A DNA stretch of 64,000 bases, taken from assembly GCF_030684315.1 (NCBI RefSeq), contig NC_081355.1, forward strand, positions 88,365,733 through 88,429,732. The letters run 5' to 3'. The notes beneath the pieces were generated by a model that worked only from the letters and a program-made list of their open reading frames with translations, did no database searches and was not told the DNA's origin. The stretch is from Stegostoma tigrinum (lineage: Eukaryota). Positions within the stretch are counted from its first letter, which is position 1. Each line of letters begins with the position of its first letter. A program made the translations under genes and the position numbers. Below are positions 29,501 through 63,179 of this stretch, one piece after another.

Positions 29501-32500
29501 AAAACTAAAAATTGTTAATTATTATTCATTTAAATGCCATTTAGACAAGGAAGAAAGGGTAGCAGACATTTCTTAAATATTTTCTGTCTCCCTTATAATT
29601 GCTTGATACATAGAAAACTTATCTGCACAAACGCACCACTAATAGTCAATTGTGTCTTTCCTGTTCACATTAAAAACAAGCAAGTAATTGTACCTAGTGT
29701 ATAGCCATATGGTGTCAGCACACGGGAAGCAAAGTAATTCCTTGCTCCAAGAAGATCAGTCAGGGCATTCTTAACTTTGTTGTAGAGTTGTTCATCTACC
29801 AGGCTTTCCACTGAGCGTCCCGGTGTAATGAAAGACTTGACTCGATACTTTAAAGGAAGGCTGGGACCCTGTTGGAAAACAAATTTGGTATATTTTTTAG
29901 AGATAGCAGGAACTGCAGACGCTGGAGAATCTAAGATAACAAGGTGTAGAGCTGGATGAACACTACAGGCCAAGCAGCATCTCAGGAGCACAAAAGCTGA
30001 CGTTTCAGGCCTAGACCCTTCATCAGAGAGGGGGATGGGGAGAGGCAACTGGGATAAATAGGGAGAGAGGGAGAGGCAGATAGAACATGGATAGAGGAGA
30101 AGATAGGTGGAGAGGAGACAGACAGGTTAAAGAGGCAGGGATGGAGCCATAGGTGGGGAGGTAGGGAAGAGATAGGTCAGTCCAAGGAGGATGGACAGGT
30201 CAAGGGGGCGGGATGAAGTTAGTAGGTAGGAGATGGGGGTGGGGCTTGAGGTGGGAGGAGGGGATAGGTGGGAGGAAGGACAGGTTAGGGAGGCAGGGAT
30301 GAGCTGGGCTGGTGTTGGAATGTGGTAGCGGGAGGGGAGATTTTGAAGCTTGTGAAGTCCACATAAAGTATTAGGTTCCATAAACTGAGGACTATCTACT
30401 TTCCAGCACACAACTGCTTTAAGTTATAAATTTGGAAAGAAAGGCATGAATTATAAATCACCTACATCCCAAATTGCTTCACAACCAACGTGGTACTTGA
30501 TGTGAATTTTCTGATGATCAGATAACTGTTTCTGAAACATTGATAGGAGATGGGCATAGGGACCCTGCAGAATCCCCATTATATCAGGCTGTTAAAAACT
30601 TGCCTGGGAAATTTCAGATTCCATTGGACAATTCCCCTACGCTTAGACTCTTGGAAGATATCAACCTTAATCAGAGAATTAAGAGAGTTTTGTAGAAGAG
30701 AAGTAAATAGACAGGAAAAGTTAGGATTATTAAATTTCTTGTTTAATTCTGAGTAATAAAGCCCCAACTTACTTCAAACACCCTCAAATCTATATCCCCC
30801 AGATCCTCTCAACTCCAGACTATGACCTGACACCCACTAACTGCTCTGGACACCTGCTTCAGGTCCAATTACAGTTCCCACTCAACCCTACCGACAAACA
30901 TTCCATTACTAACCCCTACCTCCCTGGCAACCTAACCTCACACTTAACTTATATCCTCACTCTTTGACAGCAGCCATCAAAGTGTGGGTAGCTGGACCTT
31001 TAAGTTACAGAACTAGCCAACAGACTTCTGTGAAAAAAGGGGCGTAGTTTGCCTATTTCCGACAGTTTTATGCGACAAGGGACTTGTGAGAACAGAAGTT
31101 TGGCACTGCATTTCTGAAGGAGACCTCATCTGCATATCCTGTCCGAAATCCCAAACTTTTTCATTTTGTGAAAATAGAAGTGGAGTGGAGTGGAGTAGCA
31201 ATACGTACAAAATTACCACTCCTCGGAAGTCCTTGCCCACCGTCATTGTTCTAACACAGGAACTACCACAAATAATTTGCACACAGCAAGCTCCCACAAA
31301 TATTAACAAGTGATAATGACCTGAGTTTGCTGTTGTTTCAGGGTTAGAACACAGGGGACAATTTCCTTGCTCCTCTTTGAAACAGTGCCTGAATCTTTTA
31401 CATCCGCCTCAAAAAGCAGATGGGACACAGGAGTATTTGTGCAGTTTTGATCACCATATTATAAATAAAAAGGACGTAGAGGCATTAGAGAAGGTGCAGA
31501 AAATATTTGAAAGGTAACGTTTTAAATGTGAGATGATTTCCATGTGGAAAGGGTAAACGGATTGATCTTTTCTTTCCTGAAGAGGAGAGGGCAACTTACT
31601 AGACTTTTTGAAATTAGGTTTTCCTACAGTTGGCATAGACAGTGTTTTGACTTTTGGGCAAGAACTAAAACTAGAGGCCATCAATACTAAATAGATTTAA
31701 CAAGAAATTAGATGGGGAAATTCAAAAGAAACCTTGTTAACCAGAAATTGATGGGAATGTGAAACCTGACCCTATAGGGAGTGTGTTAAAGCAAAGCAAA
31801 CAATTACATACAGGCTTGACCTAACAAGTGGCAAGTAACATTCATGCCTCACAAGTGCCAGGTAATGACCATCTCCAGTGACAGAATCTAACTACTGCCC
31901 CTGATGTTTAATTGCGTTACCATTCTTAAACCCCTACTTTCACAGATTACTTGACCTCCTAGCTCCTCAATACTTGTCTACAATCTAGAAGGCATAAGTC
32001 AGAAGTGTGATAGAATACACTTGCCTGGATGGGTGCATTTCCAACAACACAAGAAACTTGACACCAGCCAGGACAAAGCAGCCTGTGTGATTGGCACCTT
32101 ATCCACCACCTTCAACATTAACTTCCTTCATCATCTACTACATGAACTTAACACACCTCCTTCAGCAGCATCTTCCAAACCCATAACCTCTACATTCTAC
32201 AAGGTTACTACTCAACTACTTGCAAGTATTCCTCCAAACCCATACAATCCTGACTTGGAATTGTGTTCCTCGCAAGCAGTATTTGTTTGATGAAACTAAG
32301 AAAGATTTTACAGCTAGCTTGGGGTAACTGTTTTATGAAAGCTGATATTGAACTATCAATTAAATGCTTAGGAGCGCTATTGGGACGAGATTGACGAGAT
32401 TAAATAGTCGTTTAGACAGTCAAGGCCAAGGGAACTTTGAGGACATTATAAGGGTAGACCTTTGAAAGTCAAGAATTGGAATTCCTTGCAAAGGAAATAG

Positions 32501-38500: not shown

Positions 38501-41500
38501 GTCGAGACAAGTACCTATGTTACCTGCCACAATAATCACAGAATTAATATGGTTTAGTGACTTTGTGTGTGGTGATTGAGGGAGTGAATGTTTAAGATCG
38601 TGGATGCAATGCTGATCAATCAGACTGTTCTGTTCTTGAATGTTCAAACAATGCTGAATCACTGATCACAGACAAATTGTTGCTTAGGGGCAAAAGAAAA
38701 CACAGTAAAATTATCAAAGAAAACTGCTGTAATAAATTCATGAATGGTTGTGATCCCCAATCAGGAAAGATTGAACAGTTTGAAGAGACTGGGTCTCCTT
38801 TCCATAGATTTGAGAGCTGAAAGTGACCAATTGAGGTCATAAAAGGTTTGATACGGGAGATGTAGGCAGAACGTTCCAATTAGCTGTGAGACTGGTTCTA
38901 AGAAGATAGTCACTAAAATCAAAAGGGAATTCAGGCGACGATTCTTTACCCAGAGAATCTTCAGAATCTGTTGAGAAAAATAGCACAACTGCCTTAAAGG
39001 CAAAACTGAAAGGAGGGAAACATGAATAAGATATATCGATGGGAGATAAATTAAAAGGGATGGGAGGCAACGTTCACAGTGCATAAACAGCAGCATAGAC
39101 TTTTTATAAAATTATTATGAGATGCATAGATAGGGTTGATAGTCAGAGTCTTTCTCTTGGAGTTGAAATGTTGAAAACTAGGGGGCATTCATTTAAGGTG
39201 GGGGGGGGGGAATTCAAAGGAGATGTGAGGGGCAGGTTTAGTCAGAGGGTGGTAGAAGTATGGAACACACTGCAGTAGGGGCAGTTAAGAGACTTTTAGA
39301 TAAGTACATGAATATGCAGGAAATGGAGGGATATGGACCAAGGGCACAGCCTGTTTCTGGGTTATACATGCAATGTATACATGGGAGCAACAGAACAATA
39401 CTGGAACTCCTCTTTATTTCTTCCTCTCTTGCTGAATCATTAACTACTCACTGGACTATTGTTTCACAGATGCTCTCTTAATTATCATTCATATGCAAGC
39501 CTATGGAGCAAACCCTCGTCTATTAAACAATTGGGCGATCACTATCTCTTCTAATGTTTGAATCAGACATGCTTAAAACATATTCTACCACTACCCACCC
39601 AACCAACTCAAGGATCTACCCTGGCAACTATCCAGGAATGTGGAAATTGCCAAGGTATACCCTGCCAAAAAATCCAACCTGGCCAATTATTGCCCCACCA
39701 GTTTAATCTCAACTGTTAACAAGCGATAGAAGGAGTCATCAACAGTGCTATCAAAGCTGCACCTACTCAACAATATCCTGCTCATTGGTGCTCTGCTGGC
39801 AATCTGCCAGGCCCGTTCAGTTACTGAATTCATTACAGCCTTGATCTGAAAATAAACAAAAGTGCTGAACTAAGGGAAACCAAGTGCCGCTGCCCTTCAC
39901 ATCAAGGCAGCATTTGACTCAGCATGGTATCAAGGAGCCCTAGAAAAACTAGAGCCAATGAGAATCGGGGAGAAAATTTCCAGAGTTTGGAATGATACCC
40001 AGCACAATGAGAGACAGTTGGAGCTGTCAGAGGCCAATAATTTCAGTCACATCTCCTATTGGTCCAGATATAACTTGTAATTTACTGGAGAAACACTATA
40101 TAACAACACATCTCACTTGTAGTTTTGCTCTAACTCAAGTAGGACTCAACTCCATCTCTTCCTTCTATGTTTTGAACAGCTTTAAACCAACTTGATCCCC
40201 AGACCCTGCTGCTGCTGTAGATTGGTCAGTTCACATTGTGAAGTGTTTCATTTCCAACACACACCACAACTAGTTAGTGTGTCATATCTAATAAATGCTA
40301 TTTCTGATGAAAAGAAGCACAGAAAAATTGAAATAAGATTATGTTAAAAATGGCCTATTGTTTTGATGTTTATGGTACTCTGAATCCAACAGCTAGCTAT
40401 GGCAACATAATTACTTATAAGAATCTATTGTTCTCTACAAATTCATATTTTCCTGTCTCAAAAATCACAATTAATTATTTTCAATCTACGTACAACACAG
40501 ACCTGCAGAGAGCAGAAATGGGCCCTTCGGTCCACAACATTATGCCGAACATGACACCAAGAAAAACTTTTCCCCTACTGCCTGCCCTTGGTCCACATCC
40601 CTCCATTTCCTGCATATTCATGTACTTATCTATAAGTCTCTTAACTGCCCCTATTGCAGTGCGTTCCAAACCTCTACCACCCTCTGACTAAACCTGCCCC
40701 TCACATCTCCGTTGAACTTTCCCCCTCTCACCTTAAATGCATGCCCCTTAGTTTTCAACATTTCAACTCTGAGAGAAAGACTCCGACTATCAACCCTATC
40801 TATGTATCTCATAATAATTTTACAGACTTCTATCAAGTCTCCTCTAAGTCTCTGCCACTCTGGAGAAAACAACCCAAGTTTTTCTAGCCTCTCCTTATAG
40901 TTCATACCATATAATCCAGGCAGCATCCTGGTAAATCTCTTCTGCACCCTTTCCAAAGCCTCCAAATCCTTTCTGTAATGTGGTGACCTGAACTGAACAC
41001 AATACTCTAAGTGTGGCCTTATCAAAGTCTTACAAAACTTCAACATGACATCTTGACACTTGTACTCTGTTCCCTGACCAATAAAGGCAAGCATGCCATA
41101 AGCCTTCTTCAGCACCCTATTTACTTGCATGATCACTTTCAGGCAGCTATGGACCTGAACCCCAAGATCCTTTTGTACATCAATGTTGTTCAGGGTCCTG
41201 CCATTAACTGTATACTTTGCCTTAACATTTGATCTCACAAAGTGCAGCACCTCACACTTACCTAGATTAAACTCCATCTGTCATTTCTCTGCTCATATCT
41301 GCAACTGATCTACATCCCACTGTATCTTTTGACAATCTTCTACACTATCCACAACTGCACCATCTTTGTATCATCTGCAAACTTACCAACCCACATTTCC
41401 ACATTTTCATTCAAGTCATTTATATATATCACAAACAGCAGACGACCCCCCAGTACAGATCCCTGCGGAACACACTAGTCACGGACCTCCAGCCTGCAAA

Positions 41501-43996: not shown

Positions 43997-44226
43997 AGCA
44001 GCTTCAGCAATGTTACTCGTCACCTGTTAGAAAAAGACTGAAGGTCAGGGACAGCCACAAGTTCGCACTGTAGTGAATTGCTAATTTTAAGGTTGAAAAC
44101 TGTGTAAATCACATTCAGCATTTGCAATGAAGGGTGAAGAATACCACAAACATTTTAAACCCTTGTTTAAATGATTCCCACAACTAAGACCTCCATGAAT
44201 AAACACTGACACCAATGACTGTATTA

Positions 44227-44403
44227 GAGATAATGGGAACTGCAGATGCTGGAGAATCCGAGATAACAAGGTGTTGGGCTGGATGAACACAGCAGGCCAA
44301 GCAGCATCTCAGGAGCACAAGGTCTAGGCCCGAAACGTCAGCTTTTGTGCTCCTGAGATGCTGCTTGTCCTGCTGTGTTCATCCAGCTCCACACTTTGTT
44401 ATC
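44227..44403. mobile_element. PLE pLTR fold-back (arms 44262-44320 / 44345-44403)
   Basis: Inverted arms around a truncated hammerhead (GGTCTAGGCCCGAAACGTC); flanking repeat CACTGACACCA(A/G)TGA at 44204 and 44403. Confidence 0.85.
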
Positions 44404-44489
44404 ACTGACACCAGTGAGGTTAATTTTCTCACATTAACCTGATGTAAAACTTCCAGTAAACACTACTTACTGTGGGGTTAAATCTGACA

Positions 44490-45237: not shown

Positions 45238-48000
45238 ATGTGCTATAGGAAGGATGTTGTGAAACTTGAAGGGATTCAGAAAAGATTTACAAAGATGTTG
45301 TCAAGGTTGGAAGGTTTGAGCTATTGGGAGAGGCTGAATAGGCTGGGGCTATTTTCCCTGGCACGTTGGAGCCTGAGGGCTGACCTTATAGAGGTTTACA
45401 AAATCATTAGAGGCATGAATAGGTTAAATAGAGAAGGTCTTTTCCCTGGGGTGGGGGAGTCCAAAACTAGGGGGCATAGGTTTAAGGTGAGAGGGGAAAT
45501 ATTTAAAAGGGACCTGAGGGGCAACATTTTCATGCAGAGGGTGGTGCTTGTATGGAATGTGTTGCCAGAGGAATGAATAGAAGTTGGTACAGCTACAACA
45601 TTCAAAAAGCATCTGGATGGGTATATTGATATGAAGTGTTTAGAGGGATATGGGCAATATGCTGCCAAATGGGACTAGATTTATTTAGGATATCTGGTCA
45701 GCATAGACAGGTTGGACTGTTTCTGTACTGTATATCTCTATGACTATGATGGTGTGTCACTTTCTTGAACTGCTGCAGAATATAGGATTTAGGCACACTC
45801 ATAGTGCTGTTAGGAAGGGAATTCCAGGATTTTTACCCATCAGTCTATTCTTGATCATCTATAAAGTGATGGAAAGACTCAGCAACAGTGCTCTCAAGCA
45901 GTACCTGCTCAGTGATGCCCAGTTTGGGTCTTGCCACAGCTATGCAGCTCCTGGCATCATTACAGCCTTGTTTCAAACACGGTCAAAAGAGCTGAATTCC
46001 AGAGGTGAGGTGAGAGTGATTTCCCTTGACATGAAGGGCATCATTTGACCAAGAAGTGCTAGGAATAACTTGAGTCAATGGAAATCAGGGGAAAGAGCCA
46101 TACTTCATACAAAGGAAGATAACTGTTGGAGGTCAGTCATCTCAGAGCCAGGATATCTTCACAATAGTTCCTCAGGGGAGTGTGCTAGGCCCAACCATCT
46201 TCAGTTGCTTCATCAATGACTTTCCCTTCAATAGTAGAAGCAGGGATGTTTATATCAAATTTATCAGCCAGGACCCCCACAATTTCTTCTCTAGCCTCTT
46301 GCAGGGTTCTTGGATATATCTGATCAGGATCAGGAGATTTATCCACCTTCATACGTTTTAGTACTTCCAACACCTCCTCTAAAGTAATATGGACTGTCTC
46401 CAAGATATTGCCACTAGCTTCCCCAAGTTCACAAGTCTTCATGACTTTCTCCACAGTAAACACAGAGGAGAAATATTCATTAAGGACCTTGCCCATCTTC
46501 TGCGGTTCCACTGTCCACTTTGGTCCTTGAGGGGTCCTATTCTCACTCTAGTTATTCTTTTCCCTTTAATATACTTAAATAATCTCTTAGGATTCACCCT
46601 AATCTTCTCAGCCAAAGCTATCTTGTGCCCTCTTTTTGCCTTCCCGATTTCCTTCTTCAGTAGACTCCTGTATCCCCCATATATCTCCAGGGATTCCCTT
46701 GATCCAAGCTGCCTGTTCCTGAGCCATGTCTCCTTTTTTCTGGTCAAAGCCTCAATATCTCTTGTCACCCAGTGTTGTCTAATACTGCTAACCTTGCCCT
46801 TCACCCTCACAGGAACATATAGACCTTAAACTCTAGCTATCACACTTTTAAAGGCCTCCCACTTACAACCACTTAAATAAGCAGTATCACAGACGGTGAG
46901 AAAGGTTATCAGAAATTGCAGCAGGATCTTGATCAGCTGGGGAAATGGACCGAGAAATGGCAAATGGTGATAAGTGTGAGTGTGTTGCATTTTGGAAAGT
47001 CAAGTCAAGGTAGGAGCTTCATGGTGAATGGTAGGGCCTTAAGGAGTGTAGTGGAACACAGGGACCTTGGAATTCAGGTGCATGGCTCTCTGAAAGTGGA
47101 GTTACAGGTAGACAGGGCAGTGAAGAAGGCTTTTGGTACACTAGCCTTCATCAGTCAGGGCACTAAGTACAGAAGTTGGGAAGTTATGTTGTAGTTGTAC
47201 AGGACACTGGTGAGGCCACACTTGGAGTGCTGTGTGCAGTTTTTTGTCATCTTGCTATAGGCAGAGTGTTATTAAACTAGAAAGAGTGCAGAAGAAATTT
47301 ACAAGGATGTTGCCAGGACTCAAGGGACTGAGTTATTGGAGAAGTTGTACAAGCAAGGACTTTTATTTAGAACATAGGAGACTGAGGAGGGGATCTTTGA
47401 TAAGTGTATAAGTTCATAAGAGGCATGGATAAGATGAATGCACGCAGTCTTTTTCCTAAGGTTGAGGAATCTAGGATTAGAGGGCATCAGTTTAAGGTAA
47501 GATGGGAAAGAATACATGGGAACCTGAGGGGCAACATTTTTACACTGAAGGTGGTACACATATAGAATGAGCTGCCAGCAGAAGTAGTTGAGGCAGGTAC
47601 ATAAAAAACTTGTTTAAAAGGCATTTGGACAAATACATGGATAGGAAAGGTTCAAGGATATGGGCCAAGTTCAGGGAAATAGGGTTACTGTTGACGGACA
47701 TTTTGGTCGGCTTGGACCAGTTTGGGCCAAAGGATCTGTCTCTGTGCTGTCGGACTCTATGACTCTATGTTTGCTGACGATTACAAAATGTTCAGCACAT
47801 TTGTGACTCTTTAGATACTGAAGTAGTCCATGACCAAGGGAAACAAGACCAGGACAATATCCGAATTTGTGCTGACAAATAGCAAGTAACATTTGCACAA
47901 GTGCAAGGCAACAACCATCTCTAAAAAGAGAGAATTTAACCATCAGTCCTGGACATTCGATGGTATTACTGTCACCAAATCCCCATTGTCAACATCCTGA
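45238..48000. mobile_element. Cluster of nested CR1-type LINE fragments (45238-45747 +, 46255-46865 -, 46890-47770 +) inside an older LINE
   Basis: Peptides YRKDVVKLEGIQKRFT, LNEYFSSVFTVE..KSPDPDQIYPR, LQQDLDQLGKW; the interrupted LINE resumes at ~47770. Confidence 0.85.
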
Positions 48001-48365
48001 GGGTAACCGTAAATATTAGGATGATCACTTGGACAAGTAACTGGTCAGCAACCATAGAATACTGTTAGTTTCTGCCTTCATGAGAGGTGCGTAGTTAATT
48101 TCAAAGATAAGTAAGTTTTTTAAATTCATTTATTCACAGGATGAGGGCATCACTGGCGAGGCAACATTTATTGCCCACTCCCATTGCCCAGAGGGCTTTT
48201 AAGAATCAACCACATTGCTGTGGATCTGGAGTCACATGTAGGCCAGACCAAGTCAGGATGGCATCAGTGATAATGGGAACTGCAGATGCTGGAGAATCCA
48301 AGATAGTAAAACATGAGGCTGGATGAACACAGCAGGCCCAGCAGCATCTCAGGAGCACAAAAGCT

Positions 48366-48393
48366 GACGTTTCGGGCCTAGACCCTTCATCAG
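48366..48393 (-). ncRNA. Hammerhead ribozyme motif (intact core)
   Basis: CTGATGA A GGGTCTAGGCCC GAAAC GTC on the - strand. Confidence 0.75.
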
Positions 48394-48843
48394 AGAGGGG
48401 GATGGGGTGAGGGTTCTGGAATAAATAGGGAGAGAGGGGGAGGCGGACCGAAGATGGAGAGAAAAGAAGATAGGTGGAGAGGAAGAGATTACAAGAGAGT
48501 TGCAGTGGGAGAGAGATTCCCTGAGGTTGGTCCGGAGGGAGGAGGGTAACTTCTTCAGGTTAGGCATCTGGAATAAATAGGGAGATTTTATTATCTTGGA
48601 TTCTCCAGCATCTGCAGTTCCCATTATCACTGATACAATTTTAACCTCACTGCGAAGCCTCTTCCAGGGATGCCTAACCTGAAGAAGTTACCCTCCTCCC
48701 TCCGGACCAACCTCAGGGAATCTCTCTCCCACTGCAACTCTCTTGTAATCTCTTCCTCTCCACCTATCTTCTTTTCTCTCTATCTTCGGTCCTCCTCCCC
48801 CTCTCTCCCTATTTATTCCAGAACCCTCACCCCATTCCCCTCT

Positions 48844-48871
48844 CTGATGAAGGGTCTAGGCCCGAAACATC
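48844..48871 (+). ncRNA. Hammerhead ribozyme motif (AUC variant)
   Basis: CTGATGA A GGGTCTAGGCCC GAAAC ATC. Confidence 0.65.
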
Positions 48872-49182
48872 AGTTTTTGTGCTCCTGAGATGCTGCTGGG
48901 CCTGCTGTGTTCATCCAGCCTCACATTTTATTATTTTGGATTCTCCAGCATCTGCAGTTCCCATTATCACTGATACAATTTTAACCTCACGCGAAGCCTC
49001 TTCCAGGGATGCCTAACCTGAAGAAGTTACCCTCCTCCCTCCGGACCAACCTCAGGGAATCTCTCTCCCACTGCAACTCTCTTGTAATCTCTTCCTCTCC
49101 ACCTATCTTCTTTTCTCTCCATCTTCAGTCCGCCTCCCCCTCTCTCCCTATTTATTCCAGAACCCTCACCCCATCCCCCTCT

Positions 49183-49210
49183 CTGATGAAGGGTCTAGGC
49201 CTGAAACGTC
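49183..49210 (+). ncRNA. Hammerhead ribozyme motif
   Basis: CTGATGA A GGGTCTAGGCCT GAAAC GTC. Confidence 0.65.
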
Positions 49211-50914
49211 AGTTTTTGTGCTCCTGAGATGCTGTTGGGCCTGCTGTGTTCATCCAGCCTCACATTTTATTATCCAGGTCAGGATGGCAGTCTCCTTCTC
49301 TAAAAGACATCAGTAAACCAGATGGGTTTTTCCCAATAATTGGCAATGGATTCACGGTCATCATTAGACTCATAATTCCAGATATTTATTGAATTCAAAT
49401 TCCAACATCTGTCATGGCAGGACTTGAAGCTGGGTCCCCGGAACATTACCTGGGTCTCTGGATTAACAGTCCAGCGATAATACCATCACCTCCCTAAAGA
49501 GGCACATGTACTTGGAAGGTCATAACAATCAACAACTGTAGTTTAAAGTCACAAACCAAAAATGGACTTTCACCAGTTAGATTAAAAGTAAGTGTATATC
49601 TCATTTAAGAAATCAGACATGTGTGTGTCTCTGGTCAGCAATGATAAGTAAAACCACGTCACACATCTATGTGCTGAGGTGATAAAAACATATCTGAAAC
49701 ATTTTAAAAGAACATCACGTTCAAGTTCTCACTTTACCAGATCATGGTTCAGTGTTTACTGGATTTGAATTTTTTATGCAAAAATTGCGTAAAAAGCAAT
49801 GTTACCAATGTAAGTAGATCATTTTATTTTTAATTTTATTTGCAATTATTAATAAATTAGTGCAGAAAATGAAATCAGTAATATGCATCTATATGCACAA
49901 TTACCTTATATAAAGGTCCTTACAATGCCACAGCAGTGAAATTAGTAAATTAAACACCATAGAAAGTTATTCATTAATTAAACACCATAGAAGGCTAGGG
50001 CAGATACTTAATGGTTAAGGATCATTTCAATCATGAGATTTATATCCTTGCTTTGTCAGTCAACACCTCAGTCCATAAACGGAAAGTTTTAAAGAACTAA
50101 ATCTGAATTGCTGAATTGTGCTTAGAGGTGATTTACATATCTGTAATGTTTTGTTTTATATCCTTCTTTTGTGTCTCCTGTCTCTTAATTCAATCTCTTT
50201 GCTATCTCTCTATGTTTCTATGATGTAAATATTTTAATAGTAATTTCCTATTTCCTTCTTAGTCGTTCCTCTGTTTCTTTGCCTAACCTTTAATTTGTTA
50301 AGGAGATAGGTGATTGGTCCCATCATTCACCAAAGTTCAAGGTGCCCTATTACTTCCTTGTATTGCTATCACCTTGACTTTGCCATCGTTAATGCCAAAG
50401 AATGAAGGGAAAGACCGAACGAACAGAGCATGCTGTCTCACTGCTGATGAAGTTAGGAGCTGAATGACACTGGCAAAATCCAAATTGAAGTTCTGAAGAA
50501 AAGTCATAACTCTTTTTCTCCATCCATAGATGGTGCCCAACCAGCTGATATCCTCCAATACTTTATTTCTATTTAAATTTTCCAGAATTTGCAACACCTT
50601 GCTTTTATTGTAGTGCATTTGTGTTCATTTTCCCTGTGTTCTTGAGAGTCAGAGTCTAGACCTATACAGCATGGAAACAGGCCTTTCATCCAAAAGTGGA
50701 CCATGCTGCCCACTCAGCTAGTTCCAATTGCCAACATTGGTCCATATCCCTCTCAGCCCTTCCCATCCATGTACCTAACCAAATGCTTTTTAAATGTTTC
50801 TATTGTACCTGGCTTAACCACTTTCTCTGGCAGCCCATTCTATATACACATCATTCTAAGAGTGAAGAAGTTGCCCCTCAGCTCCTTCTTAAATCTTTCC
50901 CCTCTCATCTTAAA

Positions 50915-51614
50915 GGGGAAACCAAGCGGAGGCTGGGAGACTGCTTTGCAGAACACCTCCGCTCGTTTCGCAATAAACAACTGCACCTCCCAGTCGCGAA
51001 CCATTTCAACTCCCCCTCCCATTCCTCAGAGGACATGTGCATCCTGGGCCTCCTGCAGTGCCACGATGATGCCACCCGAAGGTTGCAGGAACAGCAACTC
51101 ATATTCCGCTTGGGAACCCTGCAGCCCAATGGTATCAATGTGGACTTCACAAGCTTCAAATTCTCCCCTCCCGCCACGGCATCCAAAAGCCAGCCCAGCT
51201 CGTCCCCGCCTCCCTAACCTGTTATTCCTCTCACCTATCCCCTCCTCCCACCTCAAGCCCCACACCCATTTCCTACCCACTAACTTCATCCCGCCCTCTT
51301 GATCAGTCCATCCTCCCCGGACTGACCTATGCCCTCCCTACCACGCCACCTACACTCAACTTTACTGACTCCATCCCTACCTCTTTAGCTTGTCTGTCTC
51401 CTCTCCACCTATCTTCCCCTCTATCCATATTCTATCAGCCTCCCCCTCTCTCCCTATTTATTTCAGAACCCCTTTCCCCTCCTGCATTTCTGATGAACGG
51501 TCTAGGCCCGAAACGTCAGCTTTTCCACTCCTAACATGCTGCTTGGCCTGCTGTGTTCATCCAGCTCTGCACCTTGTTATCTCAGATTCTCCAGCATCTG
51601 CAGTTCCTATTATC
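50915..51614 (+). mobile_element. 5'-truncated Penelope-like element inserted in a CR1 tail
   Basis: [17 protein letters not shown]...PVANHFN...[21 protein letters not shown]; flanking TCTTAAA repeat (50908 / 51615); hammerhead motif at 51490-51517. Confidence 0.9.
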
Positions 51615-51859
51615 TCTTAAACTCTATGCCCTCTTGTTTTTAATTCCCTGTCCCTGAGAATTCACGAAAGAGCAGCGCTTGGAAAACTGTGATTTCAAAT
51701 AAGCCTGAAGGACTATACCTGGTGTTCAGAAGTTCTGGGTTCAAGTCTCAATTGCCTCAGTGGTGTGTCACAACATGCCTTTCCAGGTTGATTGAAAATA
51801 ATAAACACTGGCGGCAGAGATGCCTGAAAGTAAAATTCAGTTCAGTACTCTTTATGGAT

Positions 51860-52450
51860 CTCCCTAGTTACACGTGGAATGACGCTGAGGATCTGTCAGA
51901 TAAGCAGCATGGATTCACTGTCGGCCTCTCCAGGTCATTAGTCCCGCCCATTTCATGTGGGCTGCATTTATTGGATAAACGTTCCCAAAGGCACATGATG
52001 ATTGGGTAATTGTGCTGTCAATCAGGCGCAGTTGCGTTTTGTTGAGCGCTTGCGCCAATGTTGCCAGTGAGTGGAACATTGAAAGTATCGAGCTGGAGTC
52101 GGGCACTAGTCAGAGTCGCGGAGCAGGTGGGATCGGTTCGTACAGTGTATTTCCCTTGGCACGAGGGTATTCATGACCGTGTTGTAATTTGTCCCCATCG
52201 GGTATTTCTTACTGCGGCGCTTCGGAAAAGGACACTTATCACCTCCAGTCCTCCTTCGTAAGTAACCCACGTTTTTTTTGTTCTGCTCCGTGGATTGTAG
52301 TTCGTGTACCGCCAAAAGAAGGCGCCGGGGCGCCTCATAATTTTACAGCACTTATTCAGAACAAATTATCTAATCATTTAAATCCCACGCACCGCTCTTT
52401 CCGTTTGCGTTATCTTCATTATTAAAGTAATAAAGATGCCATGGCGCCCT
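51860..52450 (+). promoter_or_regulatory. CpG-rich probable MTRR promoter and non-coding exon 1 (candidate donor GTAAGT at 52258)
   Basis: E-box CACGTG (51871), GC box CCCGCCC (~51943), ATTGG/CCAAT boxes, NRF1-type GCGCTTGCGC (52046-52055), consensus donor. Confidence 0.6.
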
Positions 52451-53799
52451 GGTGCTCTTCAGATCAGAAAGAAATTTAGAGGAATAGTTCCCAATATTTG
52501 CTGCTTAGTCTGGGGAAGGGAGCAAAGGCGATTGAAAGCCGAAACAAAAGTTGTAGTTTTCTTTGGAGGTTGTACAATATGTTTAGATGTAATGCTGTTC
52601 TTATGGACTAATTTTTTGGGGAGGGTGAATGAAGCATAAATTTATCAGAAGGCACAAACAGGCCATTCAGTGCAAACATATGTGCTCCATTCAAGCCCAA
52701 TCCCACCTGTCCTCATCTAAATCTATTATTGTAAACTCATATTTCTTTCTCCCTCATGCTTGTCAGGCTACCGCTCACCAATACTATTTGTTTCAGCCAC
52801 TCTGGTAGCAGGTAACACTTGCAATTTTTTTTGTTTGTTTGGTTTTTAAAAAGAAATTTTCTTCTGATTTCAGTGTAGATTTCTTGGTGACTATCTTCTG
52901 TTGATAGCATCTGCTTCTCTTTCTCTGTCCAGTCGATCAAAAGCCCTCCTAATTTTAAAGACCTATTTCAGATCATTACTTAGCTTTTCTCGAGAGAAAA
53001 GAGACCAGCCTTACCTGATATACTTATCAGAGCTTTTCTGAGATATGGATGTATGTATGAACTAGGATTGGTTGTAGGGCACTCGGCCCTTTGAGACCCC
53101 TCTACTGTTGAGTTGGATTATGGCTGATCTGATTTTAACTTTAACTTGACATTCTTGCCTACTCCTGATAACTTTTCACTGTTTGCATATCTAGAATCTC
53201 TGGTCAGGTGGCAGATAAGTATTTTTAAAGCAATCTATTGACATCTTTTACAGTCCACAGCTACCCTCCTCTCTGTCAATCAGGTGCCCAATTTATGTGA
53301 TCATTCCTCCTACATTTATGACAAAATTGTTAATATTCATGTCAAAGAAAAAAGGAGACTGAGTGCGAAGCCCTGTGGAACCCCACTAGAGTGATCCATA
53401 GTGTCACAAAAGTACCCATTAATAATTACCCTTTGTTTCCTGCCACTGAATTTTATTTTATCCAGCTTGCTATGTTCACTTGGTTCCCATTGGATATTTC
53501 TTTTAAACCAGTATGTCATGTGGATCTATATTTAAATTCCCCTTGTTACTTTCTCAAATAATTCCATCACAATAATCAGACAAAATCTTCATGATTTCCC
53601 ACCAACAAATCTGTGCTGACCTCCATTGGGAACACGTTTGCTCTGAACCACTGAAATCTCTTCTCCTACGCCCCCTCCATGTTTTCTGCTGCTCTGATAC
53701 TGATTCACTTTCAAATTGTTTTTGATTCCAATCCATTCTGCTAAATCACTCCTTAGACGTGTAAAACTAGCCTTGCCAATGTTTAAGAATTCTTCTAAC

Positions 53800-56089: not shown

Positions 56090-57200
56090 TGTGCAGTTGA
56101 GCTCATTTTGAATGACACCATATTTGCCCAAATAGATGGTATTTCCATAGAATTTCTGCCAGGCCCAGTGCACTCCAACATCTTTTGTTGGGTTCCATTA
56201 TGGAATGACATTAAACCTCCCAGCCTTGCACGTTTCTATGTCTTCACCATCTGTGGGATAATGGCCACATTGGTCTGGTTCATGGAAAATTCATGAATGA
56301 GTTTTAGGTGCCACTTTTGATCCTAAAATGAAAAGTGCTATGTTTACCTCCCATTTACCCTGGAGCGTAAGGTACCCTGAAGTTTGAGTAACAAGTTATG
56401 CTAATTGTTTCAAGCTGCTTCTATATATGAGTAACAAGGGTGGTGTCTGCCACTTACAGGATGCTGCTGTCAGGCCATAAAGATGTACTGCCTATCACGC
56501 AAAACGGTTGTTCATGAATTTTATTCCCAGTGTGATGTCCGGTATGTAGGTTATGTGTCTCAAGCACTAGATGATCTTGCAGCATTTCCCTTCAGCTGTT
56601 TGCACTAAGCAGACTTTGATATGATACCCAACAAGTCTGGACTTGCAAAACTCTCAACAATGCGCAATGTAAGAAGGGATTCCAAAATGGGACAACATTT
56701 GCTGGATAATCCTGAGTGTGATAATTTTTATTGAAAATCAATTCATTTGGCTTGTAGTGTGGCGCCCTTGAGTACCAGAAGTTATGCGTGAATATGCAAG
56801 GCTCCTTATTGCAGACAGAAGGAACGCAAATGTACACTGTAATAAAGTGTGAAGCTGGATGAACACAGCAGGCCAAGCAGCATCTCAGGAGCACAAAAGC
56901 TGAGATGCTGTTTGTCTGCTGTGTTCATCCAGCTTCACACTTTATTATCTTTGGATTCTCCAGCATCTGCAGTTCCCATTATCTCTGATGCAAATGTATG
57001 CTGTGCTTGTTTTGACTCAAAATAGGTGACCCATTCTCTGTTTCATTGGTCCAGGCATTGGCAATCAAACTTGATTTCACAGGACAATCAGTCAGCATTC
57101 TGCCATCACGTTATTTTCATTTTTTCACTGGTATTTCTTTCAAGTTGTCCTAGTAATTGCAAGATGAAAAGCTTTTCTTTTTCTAGCTGTAGAGGGGATT
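56090..57200 (+). mobile_element. Old degenerate Penelope-like element (RT and GIY-YIG remnants) with a nested pLTR fold-back at 56840-56989
   Basis: NDTIFAQIDGISIEFLPGPVHSNIF resembles the PLE RT QxxGxxMGSPLGPxLANIF motif; CD..YVG remnant at ~56530; nested insert flanked by GCAAATGTA (56826 / 56990). Confidence 0.6.
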
Positions 57201-58147: not shown

Positions 58148-58291
58148 ATGCCTTTAGAGATCAAACATCGAATTTTGTTGCTTTATGCCTCACAAAATGG
58201 ACAAGCGAAAGCGATTGCTGAGGATATTGCTGAAGCAGCAGATGGAAAAGGATTTATAGCTGACCTATATTGTGTAAGCCAAATGGAAGAG
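58148..58291 (+). CDS. MTRR: MTRR first coding exon
   Basis: Branch-like CTAAC and gcAG acceptor at 58134; [48 protein letters not shown]; donor GTAACT. Confidence 0.93.
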
Positions 58292-61200
58292 GTAACTGAG
58301 GGAAAATTATCCTTTCTTTTTATATATAGCAGACAATGCATGTGATTGAAAAGAGTAGACTGAATTCAGTTTGGGTGTCAATTTTAATAAGCCTTATAGA
58401 CAGTCTTGCTCAGCGAAACCCAGAATGTTTTCTCACTCAGTTCTGTGTAGCTTGCCTCATTGGCTTTGCACCACACTTCTATGAAGTCCTGCTCATTCTA
58501 TCTTTCCTCTTGTCGGTCGAGGAAGTACTTTTCATCTGTGTGACCTGCTGGGAATCCCAGCCCCATTTTTACAGATGCATTTGTGCACCAGGTTGAGTGC
58601 TGACAGTGTGCCCCTACCAAGCTCTGATTCTTTGACCCAAAGCCCCTCTGTGTGGCTATCTGATGTGTAAGTGAATGTTTAAAACATGGTGTAAATTTAA
58701 AACAAAACTCATGGTCATTCATTATTGGTACAATGCTTTCACAAGACCATGAAAGAGTGTTTTATTTCAGAATCACAGAACCACAAAAATAGGTACAGGA
58801 ACAGACCATTTGCCCTTGAGTGTGTTCTGTCATTCCACATGATTTGCTGCTGATCATCTAACTTAGTACCCTGTTCCCGCTTTCTCGACATTCCCTCAAT
58901 CTGTTTTTTTTGGGGTTAAGGGATCAAACTCCTTGAAAACAGTGTTTTGACCTCAATTGCTTTCTGTGGCAAAGAAATTCTGCAGGCTTGCCACTCTGAG
59001 TGAAGAAATTTCTCCTTGTCACAGTTCTAAATTTGCAGTCCAGTGTCCTTAGACTCTGAGCCCTGGTTCTGGTCACTGTGGTCATTGGAAACATCCTACA
59101 GGTATCTGGTACATGTCACGTGGGGGGCCACTGGATAACAGGTTTCACTGAGTTAATTTGCTTCATTGCTGAATCTTATTGAAAAGCTGACGTTGTTAAT
59201 ATTTGAAGATGTTCGTTTTCTCTTGATGTATTTCTTCAGTTCAACCTGGAGAAGGAACATGCTCCAGTTGTTATAATCACCTCTACTACTGGTTTTGGAG
59301 AAGTACCAGACACAGCAAGGAAATTTGCACGAGAGCTTAAGAGTGATTTGCCAGCTGACTTCTATTCACACGTAAAATATGCAGTATTAGGTAATAAACT
59401 ATCATCTGGATTTTACAGATAATGTTAGCCAACAATTTATTGTTTTCTGACATTGATTTATTTTCCCTAGCTCTTGGAGATTCCAACTACAGTTGTTTTG
59501 CCAATGGTGGAAAGATAATTGATAAATGCCTTCAGCAGCTTGGTGCACAACATTTCTATGCAACTGGATATGCAGATGATGCTGTTGGGTAAGACCAGTG
59601 ATGAGATCTTCTTCCAACTGATTTTTTTTAAAAAATCTGTCCTGTATATTTAAAGATATAGTATATTATTTCAGTGTTACTGCATCATACGTAGAATTTT
59701 GGAGAAAATAATTAGTGAATGAACAGAAGCCATTGAAAACAATGTAAAGCAAATTATTCCTTTTTCTGAGCTTCTGAAAGGTGTTATTTTAAGATCCTCA
59801 TTTGCTTTCATTAGTTAGGCTTGGCAGCGTAAATTTTTTTCGGGAAGTTGTTATGAGTTTGATTTTTGTTTTTTAAGTTGCTGTGAAGGTTTTCCCCAAA
59901 GTAGCAGAATCAGGGGAAATCGTTTCGGAGCAGCTCTTGTCTGGCGACTTACTACTGACTGCTTGCAGTGGAGCAGGCCTAGAAGCAGTTTGCTTAGCAG
60001 TGCAAAACATGTGAATTGTGAGAAATAAAGAAGAAAGGAGCATTAAGGTTTGGATTGGATGCTGTTAGTTTTGGAAATTTTATAGACCTGCTATTTTGCC
60101 TTCATGATTAGAGTAGAAAATGCCACCAGTGATCCAGACAGTTCCTTTTCTTGCAGCTGACCTTATGCATAGGTCGGTACAAAGTAGAATCACATATCTT
60201 TGTTGCTCCATGTGCAACATCCACAATAAACAGACTTATCTCTGAGATTTACTTCTCTTTAGGATTGACCCTGGTGGTGATGGTTAACTTTCCTCTTCAT
60301 TTGAATATAGGAGAGTCCTATTTTACCGCTGTCTAAATAACATTCCTCTTTTTTTTTTGCTCTCTCCTCCCACATTTCTAGTCTTCCTTCAGTCACATTT
60401 CAGCAAGTTTAGATTGGATACGTTAACAAGCAATGAAACCTTGTTTCCTTTTGTAGATGTTATTCACTGACAATGTTTCCTCCTCTGTGCCAAGAACCTC
60501 CTCATCACTGTTGTGTTTTCTTTAACTGACCTGTACCGTCCTTCTCCAGAGTCACATTTCACAATTATCTAGTCTTTGGATGTCCCTTATTGGTCCTGTG
60601 CAAAAAGTCACTTCAGATTTATAGTCTTAATTTAGACTGGCATTTGTTTGAAAATAATACAATATATATTTATGTAAATGTTTATATATGTGGGCTGGCA
60701 GATTGTGATAGTGTCATGATCAGCAACAATACTTTCAAATATTGTTTTTGACAAATTAAATGCAATGTATTAGCCTATAATAGCATTACTTAACACGTTG
60801 CCCTTACGAATTTGAATGCAATTTTAGGATTTACCGTACGTAATCTCCTGTCATTCACTGTTGCGTCACTGTTGTGCTACGGGCCCCTCCCTGACCCTGC
60901 CTCAAAGCTGGCAGTCAATGAAATGAGTTGATGTGGCAAAAATGTGTTCTCCTGTCCCGTTGTCATTTCATTGCTAGAAATTTGATTGTACTAAGCCTCC
61001 TCCGAGAGGTGTAACTGGACTTTTAATGGCAACTACTGCCGAGGAACCATCTGCCATGACAGAAAACATGTTTTTGTGTGTCTCTCAGGAGTTCTTCCCA
61101 AGTTCTTTCTAAAACTAGACTATTTTTCTTCCAGCTTCTACCTTCACCCCATTGTATATCTCCTAGTTTTTATTTTGCGGTTGTATACTAAGGGGAGATG

Positions 61201-63179
61201 ATGGTGTAGTAGCATTGTCAAAGGGCTAGCGTTCCAGAACCCCAGTCTAATGGTTTTGAGACATAATTTCAGATCCTACTGTGGTGAATGTAATGTGGAA
61301 ATAATAAAAATCTGAAAAAGAAAGCTGTAGCCGAGTTGGTGACCATGCAACCACTGGTTGTCATAAAAATGCATCTGATTCACTTACGTCCTATTTTATT
61401 TTCGATAAATAAGTCTCACCTATTCTGGCCATAAATAAAGTCTAACTGTCATAGCGATTGTTGCTGTAAAGTTTAAAGTGATTTGATATTAGTGCTTCTC
61501 ATTTCCTTGTTAGTTTGCTGTAATGTTTTTTTAACATGACTCCTTGTGCAGATCTATGTGTTTATCTTGCAAATCTTTGATGGAAATGCGACTCAAAAAG
61601 CATCAGAACTTACAAATTAGAAAGCATAAATAAATAGACATGTACTAGGGAAGACAGTAATGTATATCCTTGTGCTTTACAAGAGCTGTTGTAAAGTTGA
61701 TGCAAAAAAATTCAGTTGTTTTATTTTTAATTTTAGTATTGGTGCAATGCATTATATAAAGCCAGGTATGAAATTCAGTTTTGAATTTGGTCATGTACTA
61801 GAAATTGTTGGTCCAGCTCTTAGATGTCTGCCCCAAGAAGTTCCAGATGTATTGAGGGTTATCAGACCACTTTGATCATATATTTCACAAGACAACAGGG
61901 GATCCAGGCCCTCAGTTTACTATGTGGTGCATCCTAACACGCAATCGGTTTTCAAGTTTATCTTTTTTTAAAAAATCTCTAAAATGAGCTTTAATTTGTA
62001 TCATGGGACATCACTGTTAATTTAGTCAAGGGATCATCTGATTTGATCTTGTGTTTATGATGCACAAACTAATCTTAATTCTAACCCTATTGCCTACACA
62101 GTCTTTCAAACAAAAACTCTAATTACTCTTCGTTACTGTTGTGGAGAAGTTATGGTAACAAAAATGTGTTAACTTTTTTTTTCTGTTCGTAATTGATCTT
62201 GTAAAAGCCACTGCTGTGGTAAATTGCTTTACATTTGCTCACGAACTTACGAGAATGAAAATTATGCACAAAATATCTATGACGTTCTGATCATTGTAGT
62301 TGGCAAACTCCATTCTTGTATAGACATTTCAAACGTTTGCTGCTGATCAGTAAGCTTCCTTGCTGGCAGCAAAGGTATGTAACATGACCTTTTGTATAGG
62401 GTGGGATGGAAGAGTGGAAAGTAATGTTACATGGAAAATGTATATCAAATGTACATTTCTGCATCAGCAACAGTCTTTAAATTGGAATCTGTGTTAACAG
62501 AACAAAATGATTAATAAAAACAAACTGCATGAGTTTAATTTTGTGGAATTATGTTTTCCATTTGGTTGCGTATATTATAAATATTTTCTACTGTGTGCTG
62601 TCCTGTGTTATGATGTAAACCCACTTAAGCTGATGGTTTTATAATCTTGTTGGAGCAGCTCATTCCTAATCTGACCTTAATTATACTAACTCTTTCTAAA
62701 AAGGAAATTTTGTTATTGCCCTTCCTCTGTCGTTTTTGAGCCTTTAATAGTTTTGGACATTTAATAATAACAGTAATATTCATTTTCAATTTCTGTTTGG
62801 TTTTAGGTTGGAATTAGTGGTTGAACCTTGGATTGAAGGTCTTTGGGATGCATTGAAGGAATTGTGCCAGAAGCAAAACGCGGAGATTTACAGTGATGCA
62901 GAAAAAATACTGGATATGAATCATGCTTCAACAACTAACAAGAGTTTTGAGCTGCCAGATATTGAATTGAGGTTAGAAGCAAATGTACCACCAACTTCTA
63001 AAGATTCATTTAATTCATCTGAGGGTGTTGAACCGAATCCTATTGTAGCAGGGCTTCAGGAATGTCGTCTAGTGCCAACCTGGGTAAAATCGGAAAAGCC
63101 CTTGTCAGAAACTGCTCTGAATATCCCTTCACTGCCTGTGGAGTATCTAAATGTGGAGTTTCAGAAAAGCACAGTGCAG
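58148..63179 (+). CDS. MTRR: Methionine synthase reductase, 5' part (FMN/flavodoxin domain and hinge); gene continues beyond the window
   Basis: Exons 58148-58291, 59240-59390, 59471-59588 and 62807-63179 splice in frame: [18 protein letters not shown]...[15 protein letters not shown]...[57 protein letters not shown]. Confidence 0.95.
59240..59390 (+). CDS. MTRR: MTRR coding exon 2
   Basis: [50 protein letters not shown]; AG/GT bounded. Confidence 0.94.
59471..59588 (+). CDS. MTRR: MTRR coding exon 3
   Basis: [39 protein letters not shown]; follows an 80-nt intron. Confidence 0.94.
62807..63179 (+). CDS. MTRR: MTRR coding exon 4
   Basis: [18 protein letters not shown]...[26 protein letters not shown]; donor GTAAGG. 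Confidence 0.94.

Follow-up and report, generated by a model that had tools for sequence, protein, structure and literature searches.

A tandem, hammerhead-bearing insertion in the Stegostoma tigrinum genome is probably an internally deleted Penelope-like element

The published insertion plan of Penelope-like elements (PLEs) combines a partial tandem, an inverted 5′-truncated arm, and a tail of 30 to 40 bp on one side only, and non-autonomous, multicopy head-to-tail PLE derivatives have been described, such as Chlamydomonas MRC1 and other non-autonomous Chlamys (PMC8557442). The hammerhead ribozyme of PLEs is of a minimal kind, with an extra base before helix II and a palindromic helix III that needs dimerization, and it cleaves poorly (PMC4209133). 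An Anolis PLE uses two internal start sites for reverse transcription (RT), with nicking and extension of both strands; its first 172 nt are required, hammerhead cleavage is dispensable, and no transcriptome sequencing (RNA-Seq) ends fall at the cleavage site (PMC11167929). Metazoan non-LTR (long terminal repeat) retrozymes, as strictly defined, have a canonical type I hammerhead and are expressed as plentiful circular RNAs with a high degree of self-pairing (Cervera and de la Pena 2020, PMC7229834). A 2026 preprint by Li, Clavereau, and Pollet derives animal retrozymes from the pseudo-long terminal repeats (pLTRs) of PLEs and reports retrozymes, with a mean length of 363 bp, in one Chondrichthyes genome (10.64898/2026.07.22.740005). 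Here we describe an insertion in a 64,000-nt stretch of the genome of the shark Stegostoma tigrinum (contig NC_081355.1, positions 88,365,733 to 88,429,732; hereafter the window) that holds two tandem hammerhead-bearing units of about 339 nt. An earlier note on this DNA had read it as a retrozyme copied from a circular RNA. We find that the unit is very probably an internally deleted, non-autonomous derivative of a resident shark PLE. The overall explanation that we favor, with a probability of about 0.6, is that this deleted mini-PLE was mobilized in trans by two-nick target-primed RT.

The insertion is bounded by 16-mers that are identical at 15 of 16 positions (Table 1). A scan for target-site duplications (TSDs) gave this pair a score of 13; the best score among 300 random position pairs scanned alike was 9. 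The flanks belong to an older dispersed repeat, weak copies of which were found by nhmmer at other sites in the window. In the single, degenerate host-repeat copy that bears on the matter (61150-61700, minus strand), the spacer is 33 nt, against a prediction of 32 nt for a single 16-mer and 48 nt for two, which indicates that the 16-mer was duplicated on insertion. Between the duplications lie an inverted arm of 304 nt, an 18-nt switch fragment that meets the inverted-arm ATG after a TTCCAG common to both, and a direct arm of 688 nt (340 + 339 + 9, or 2.03 units; Tandem Repeats Finder [TRF] gives a period of 339, 2.0 copies, and 97% matches). The motif TTTTATTAT occurs at 48586, 48926, and 49265. 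Direct unit 1 reads, in order, as the short-terminus motif, tail, leader, open reading frame (ORF) codons 1 to 29, deletion join, 3′ pLTR body, and hammerhead. The layout given in the earlier note, namely a 16-bp TSD with one mismatch, an inverted partial unit, a switch fragment, two direct units of 340 and 339 nt on one motif, and one hammerhead core per unit with the direct cores (at 48844 and 49183) 339 nt apart, is correct at every coordinate. Self-comparison of the window revealed two further inverted repeat pairs, at 26146-26834 and 39107-40822 (124 nt at 97% and 240 nt at 92.5%).

Table 1. Features of the insertion and its surroundings, in window coordinates.
Feature	Position	Strand	Basis or remark
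Whole insertion	48248-49289		TSD to TSD
Left target-site duplication, 16 bp	48248-48263	+	Sequence comparison, TSD scan
Right target-site duplication	49274-49289	+	Sequence comparison, TSD scan
Older dispersed host repeat, split by the insertion	48110-48263 and 49274-49500 (48110-49500)	+	nhmmer matches elsewhere in window
Inverted arm, near-complete deleted-PLE monomer	48264-48567	-	From ATG (48567) to long 3′ terminus (48264)
Minimal PLE hammerhead, inverted arm, core intact	48366-48393	-	Helix II 4 bp, palindromic ACGU helix III, 2-bp helix I
ORF codons 1 to 29, inverted arm	48481-48567	-	tblastn with Stegostoma protein
Template-switch fragment, 18 nt, pLTR-derived	48568-48585	-	Identical to 49143-49160
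Direct unit 1, 340 nt	48586-48925	+	TRF, self-alignment
39-nt PLE "tail" between short and long 3′ termini	48595-48633, again 48935-48973	+	pLTR alignment
ATG and codons 1 to 29, unit 1	48670-48756	+	Protein match to XP_059505880
Minimal hammerhead, unit 1	48844-48871	+	Helix III palindrome broken, ACGU>ACAU (G16.2>A)
Direct unit 2, 339 nt	48926-49264	+	TRF, self-alignment
ATG and ORF codons 1 to 29, unit 2	49009-49095	+	Deletion join 49095/49096
Minimal hammerhead, unit 2	49183-49210	+	C11.1>U, conserved G10.1-C11.1 pair now G-U
Family short 3′ terminus, inferred direct-arm RT start	49265-49273	+	63 nt beyond hammerhead site
FAST-domain exon, 530 codons	42437-44026	-	Domain match
CpG-rich patch	About 52000-52500		
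Flavodoxin-domain first exon	58148-58291	+	Domain match

The 3′ part of the unit (~166 nt) is 81 to 89% identical to PLE copies at 8158-8324, 29951-30116, and 51399-51565. In two of these copies an endonuclease-like ORF end is present, which we take to be PLE GIY-YIG; Pfam did not name it. The remaining segment of ~130 nt contains an ATG in each arm, at 48670 (+), 49009 (+), and 48567 (-). The first 29 codons are identical (29/29) to the N terminus of the Stegostoma tigrinum protein XP_059505880 and diverge from it from codon 30 on. Relatives of this N terminus were found in gene models of Rhincodon, Hemiscyllium, and Chiloscyllium, with 73% identity to the Chiloscyllium protein and 59% to the Hemiscyllium protein; the Chiloscyllium relative is one sequence under 4 accessions, as expected of a multicopy ORF. 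When the Hemiscyllium and Chiloscyllium sequences are compared, codon position 2 accounts for 31 of 41 differences in a downstream ungapped block of 90 residues but for 16 of 46 in residues 1 to 150, an excess that points to conservation in a shifted frame and so to a long, frameshifted ORF. The segment that the earlier note had regarded as foreign to PLEs is the 5′ leader and codons 1 to 29 of this long multicopy shark ORF. The XP_059505880 gene model terminates in a translated pLTR tail, and copy E in the window continues past the tail for the first 5 nt of this leader, which shows that the tail-to-leader continuation is native. From these sequences we infer that the ORF is the PLE's own and that the segment represents the normal 5′ end of an autonomous PLE. 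The earlier note had allowed that its unit junction might simply be such an end; the segment appears to be so, but the junction itself is a deletion join, at which codon 29 meets the 3′ pLTR through 2 to 3 nt of microhomology (48754-48756). That the unit lacks RT and GIY-YIG codons, and with them the ORF of an autonomous element, is correct. It is not free of coding sequence, and the ATG and 29 codons are all that remain.

Several minor observations concern this ORF and the frames around it. Splicing was rejected as the cause of the deletion, as none of copies A, B, and C has an AG where the pLTR meets the join. Across the deletion, each direct unit retains an open frame of 72 codons (48670-48885 and 49009-49224); the 72-amino-acid peptides have no exact match in the protein collection, where such DNA is rarely translated, neither of two candidate junction-spanning proteins passed, and a search for stray shark DNA in prokaryotic genome contigs found none. 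The C-terminal ~120 residues of a whale shark "prostatic acid phosphatase-like isoform X1" derive from the retroelement ORF, and a Hemiscyllium "mucin-2-like" protein looks like a frameshifted copy of it; shark gene models built on this ORF are probably annotation artifacts or exonizations. Within 48847-49009, a 13-codon frame begins at an ATG that falls within the hammerhead core. The hammerhead also holds a candidate splice donor, which the inverted arm and unit 2 have kept intact; splicing from it to a CAG acceptor located 2 nt ahead of the main ATG would put these 13 codons in frame with the ORF, as if the tail were part of a 5′ intron (the chance of an in-frame join is 1 in 3). Such a layout would recall the Anolis ORF, which starts at helix II.

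Alignment of 12 pLTR fragments defined two fixed 3′ termini, which at this locus lie 63 and 102 nt beyond the hammerhead site and are separated by 39 nt. Besides the insertion described here, the window contains two-armed insertions at 8141-8855, 44219-44402, and 56841-56989, which with their 15-bp TSDs span 8126-8870, 44204-44417, and 56826-57004. All four have TSDs of 15 to 16 bp and pair an arm that ends at the short terminus with one that ends at the long terminus; random choice of terminus by each arm would give this 4/4 pattern 1 time in 16. The pattern suggests coupled use of the two RT start sites, with each nick served by one of them. Three single-arm copies in the window end at the long terminus, and their TSD scans scored 2, 6, and 2, none above the null. 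Since the TTTTATTAT right end of the insertion coincides with a family terminus, it is a family trait rather than a permutation point. The circular permutation proposed in the earlier note is not borne out, as both 3′ ends are fixed family termini.

In addition to pLTR homology with the other copies, the locus presents the elements of the published PLE plan: a partial tandem with an inverted 5′-truncated arm, and a 39-nt tail at one end. It resembles the Anolis Poseidon PLE (PAc), in which two fixed RT start sites likewise mark off a tail beyond the hammerhead, priming occurs on both strands, and the cis region lies just 3′ of the hammerhead (PMC11167929). The retained 5′ piece extends 224 nt beyond the hammerhead site, compared with 146 nt required in the Anolis element. 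PAc is autonomous and its ORF begins from helix II, whereas the matching ATG of the shark unit lies 138 nt past the cleavage site (PMC11167929).

All three arms carry the deletion junction together with 2 derived bases that are absent from the other copies in the window, and the deletion must therefore have been present already in the template. No further copy of the junction was found in the 64-kb window, where it is limited to the three arms of this one insertion. Units 1 and 2 differ by 9/349, and the direct units differ from the inverted arm by 9/305 and 7/266; private changes across the three arms number 4, 4, and 3, one indel being unassigned. Of the 9 positions at which units 1 and 2 differ, 8 are substitutions, 7 of them transitions, with 3 CpG transitions. 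By sequence comparison, the differences are consistent with a single insertion event in which the templates were nearly identical and the copy then decayed. Assembly tends to go wrong at short repeats in tandem or inverted order, and a false duplication of one unit by the assembler had to be considered; we reject it as highly improbable, because the nine differing positions show a real decay pattern and the TSD is intact. The claim that the locus is a non-autonomous, PLE-related, retrotransposed unit containing a multimer is supported. The copy has since decayed by ~1.2 to 1.5% per arm, both direct hammerheads are damaged, and the locus most likely does nothing.

The favored explanation would proceed as follows. 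At some earlier time, ~3 kb (a figure taken from typical PLE size, not measured here) would have been lost between ORF codon 29 and the 3′ untranslated region (UTR) via the microhomology at the join. The remaining monomer, made up of tail, leader, 29 codons, pLTR, and minimal hammerhead, would keep the region expected to serve PLE protein binding and RT start. Because the arms share characters, we propose that a source already bearing the deletion was transcribed and then mobilized in trans by a full-length PLE protein. Its GIY-YIG nuclease would have made a 16-nt staggered cut, with both 3′ ends priming cDNA: the inverted arm (304 nt plus the 18-nt switch) at the long start site and the direct arm (688 nt) at the short one. 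The two cDNAs would then have been joined head to head. Two routes seem most likely for the template: a tandem source of at least 2.3 units may have been transcribed straight through and left uncleaved, or the RT may have made homologous jumps between monomers; with either, hammerhead cleavage would be unnecessary. We lean toward a linear template of this sort because cleavage is dispensable for the Anolis PLE in vitro and the site coincides with no mapped RNA ends.

Several findings weigh against this explanation. No full-length PLE DNA was obtained, so that the N terminus is connected with RT and GIY-YIG by indirect evidence. None of five PLE-related proteins (XP_059505880, the Hemiscyllium and Chiloscyllium relatives, and the two endonuclease-like window ORFs) had a significant Pfam family, one sub-threshold AAA_15 match being disregarded. 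For residues 1 to 165 of the Chiloscyllium relative, the ESM atlas returned merely unnamed or HEAT-like look-alikes. A short PLE RT motif matches an alternative frame at a homologous site in the Hemiscyllium and Chiloscyllium proteins, but this match is not significant on its own, since the motif also turned up in 86 and 155 of 300 shuffles. No tandem source array was seen in the 64-kb window. The direct arm stops 9 to 10 nt past exactly two units, an outcome with a 3 to 6% chance that the linear model does not explain. Lastly, units 1 and 2 share a derived T (48874 and 49213), three bases past the cleavage site, that is absent from the inverted arm (48363) and from all other copies. To judge from the sequences, this shared base would need two RNA templates, a parallel mutation, or a duplication, early or later.

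A DNA duplication after insertion would have joined the terminal TTTTATTAT repeats of one direct unit plus ~10 nt to produce the dimer, and a satellite-birth route by local duplication has been proposed (10.64898/2026.07.22.740005). It accounts both for the start and end of the direct arm on one motif and for the derived base common to units 1 and 2. We nevertheless consider it improbable: units 1 and 2 are as divergent from each other (9/349) as either is from the inverted arm, so that the duplication must have followed insertion closely, and it would rest on merely ~10 nt of homology.

The reading of the earlier note, in which dimeric hammerhead cleavage frees a 339-nt RNA that is ligated into a circle and the PLE RT travels round it twice, depends on the hammerheads. 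The inverted arm has all the features of a minimal type I hammerhead, that is, an extra base between positions 9 and 10.1, G10.1-C11.1, and a palindromic helix III. Its core is the only intact one; units 1 and 2 carry one mutation each, at conserved positions and of the CpG decay type. A canonical type I hammerhead would have a helix I of ~6 bp and loop 1-loop 2 contacts, whereas helix I here is 2 bp. Rfam gave no match in the window at the gathering score and, at E values of up to 10, three chance matches over 48200-49350, none of them a hammerhead (a MIR408 match mirrors the inverted repeat). Forcing an active-like hammerhead fold costs 6.8 to 10.6 kcal/mol in the three arms and 8.9 to 17.6 kcal/mol in three ordinary copies. 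In a predicted transcript of the whole locus, the core of unit 1 is buried in a hairpin of ~300 bp with the inverted arm.

Some observations do suit a circular template. The monomer measures exactly 339 nt from one cleavage site to the next, both direct units read through the site, the even private divergence (4, 4, and 3) suits identical templates, and the base common to units 1 and 2 suits one molecule copied twice. Circular templates have been proposed for PLEs (PMC4209133) and for retrozymes (PMC7229834), and the Anolis PLE hammerhead cleaves with protein help (PMC11167929). Against this stand the 2-bp helix I and the cost of 7 to 11 kcal/mol for an active-like fold in all arms, the lack of an Rfam hammerhead match at E values up to 10, and the predicted circle itself, which is 42% paired with a minimum free energy (MFE) of -57.5 (mean of 100 shuffles, -56.9; z = -0.13) and differs from the highly self-paired circles, with a freely folding hammerhead, of strict retrozymes (PMC7229834). 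Minimal PLE hammerheads cleave poorly (PMC4209133), eight of nine Xenopus dimers were uncleaved (10.64898/2026.07.22.740005), and in vitro PLE insertion proceeds on uncleaved RNA (PMC11167929). All ordinary PLE copies that span the site within the window read through it as well, so that read-through is not special to this locus. A circular template is accordingly doubtful in our view, and it is similarly unlikely that the locus is a fossil of rolling-circle target-primed RT in which a 339-nt mini-PLE circle was copied twice and the second cDNA came from the opposite nick. Rolling-circle copying of a 339-nt circular RNA is one of three template models, none of the evidence proves it, and the claim made for it in the earlier note is not supported.

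Among described elements, non-autonomous Chlamys share with the shark unit the pLTR-forming head-to-tail multicopy insertions, a 3′ end in common with autonomous families, the inverted arm, and the one-sided tail; the shark unit differs in having a minimal hammerhead and in that the base at which the deletion joins the ORF start can be pinpointed (PMC8557442). R2 short internally deleted elements (SIDEs) offer a second parallel, as an internal deletion retains the ribozyme and both cis ends and the product moves in trans. They belong to another retrotransposon class, and they have an HDV-like (hepatitis delta virus-like) ribozyme and no tandem or inverted plan (PMC6765202). The deleted mini-PLE is an already known sort of element whose origin is unusually clear here.

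The comparison with retrozymes depends on the definition. With those of Li et al. the insertion shares tandem units, a type I hammerhead (minimal forms being allowed), and relatedness to pLTRs, and it fits their loose "non-LTR retrozyme" definition roughly (10.64898/2026.07.22.740005). Their operational test asks for a TRF array with at least two consecutive complete hammerhead motifs and an MFE below -5 kcal/mol. Here the array is present and the overall outcome is borderline; the 28-nt cores of the direct units fold at -7.1 and -4.8, and 57-nt windows fold at -12.0 and -11.8. In the preprint a terminal repeat is proposed to amplify locally, whereas the shark unit is an ORF start joined to a pLTR; a single TSD encloses both the multimer and an inverted arm, an arrangement that favors retrotransposition. 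With strict metazoan retrozymes the shark unit shares its size, tandem layout, TSD of more than 4 bp, lack of RT, and presumed PLE helper, but its hammerhead motif is the minimal one of PLEs, its circle is predicted to be unstructured, and the unit is itself a piece of a PLE (PMC7229834). The insertion falls within the strict ranges for length (2.03 units of 339 nt; range, ~150 to 450) and TSD (16 bp), and its GC content of 169/339 (49.9%) is borderline for a limit of <50%. Membership in the strict class, as implied by the earlier note, does not hold, there being neither a canonical type I hammerhead nor a self-paired circle. Our literature search, in which coverage of subscription journals was thin and which did not extend to Repbase and Dfam, found no publication that treats this element in sharks; where PMC6155905 mentions a "shark," it does so as a shape analogy.

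The locus provides a worked example of how a retrozyme-like tandem can arise from a PLE by one deletion, from codon 29 to the 3′ pLTR, with the cis signals kept, and it supports the PLE origin of animal retrozymes at junction-level detail. It also implies that pipelines that count tandem minimal hammerheads will score deleted PLE insertions as retrozymes. Were the circle real, it would settle whether PLE tandems arise from circular templates, and the 339-nt unit would give the in vitro PLE system a compact substrate for such tests. If rolling-circle copying took place, the locus would capture, at base resolution, how one internal deletion turned a PLE into the start of a retrozyme lineage, and it would define a minimal natural cassette that suffices for trans-mobilization by PLEs; it would also tie inverted pLTRs to the paired use of the two RT start sites.

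The insertion lies between a FAST-domain exon and a CpG-rich patch, beyond which is a flavodoxin-domain exon; the two exons are oriented head to head around the patch. A PDB sequence search with the exon at 58148 gave no matches. By synteny, the flanking genes are presumably FASTKD3 and MTRR, which would place the insertion in the first intron of FASTKD3, where its inverted repeat of ~300 bp would form double-stranded RNA. PLE copy C (50913-51617) is nested in a repeat related to the one at 47400-47770, just left of the insertion, which we take to be a CR1-like 3′ end; the insertion described here is itself nested in an older repeat.

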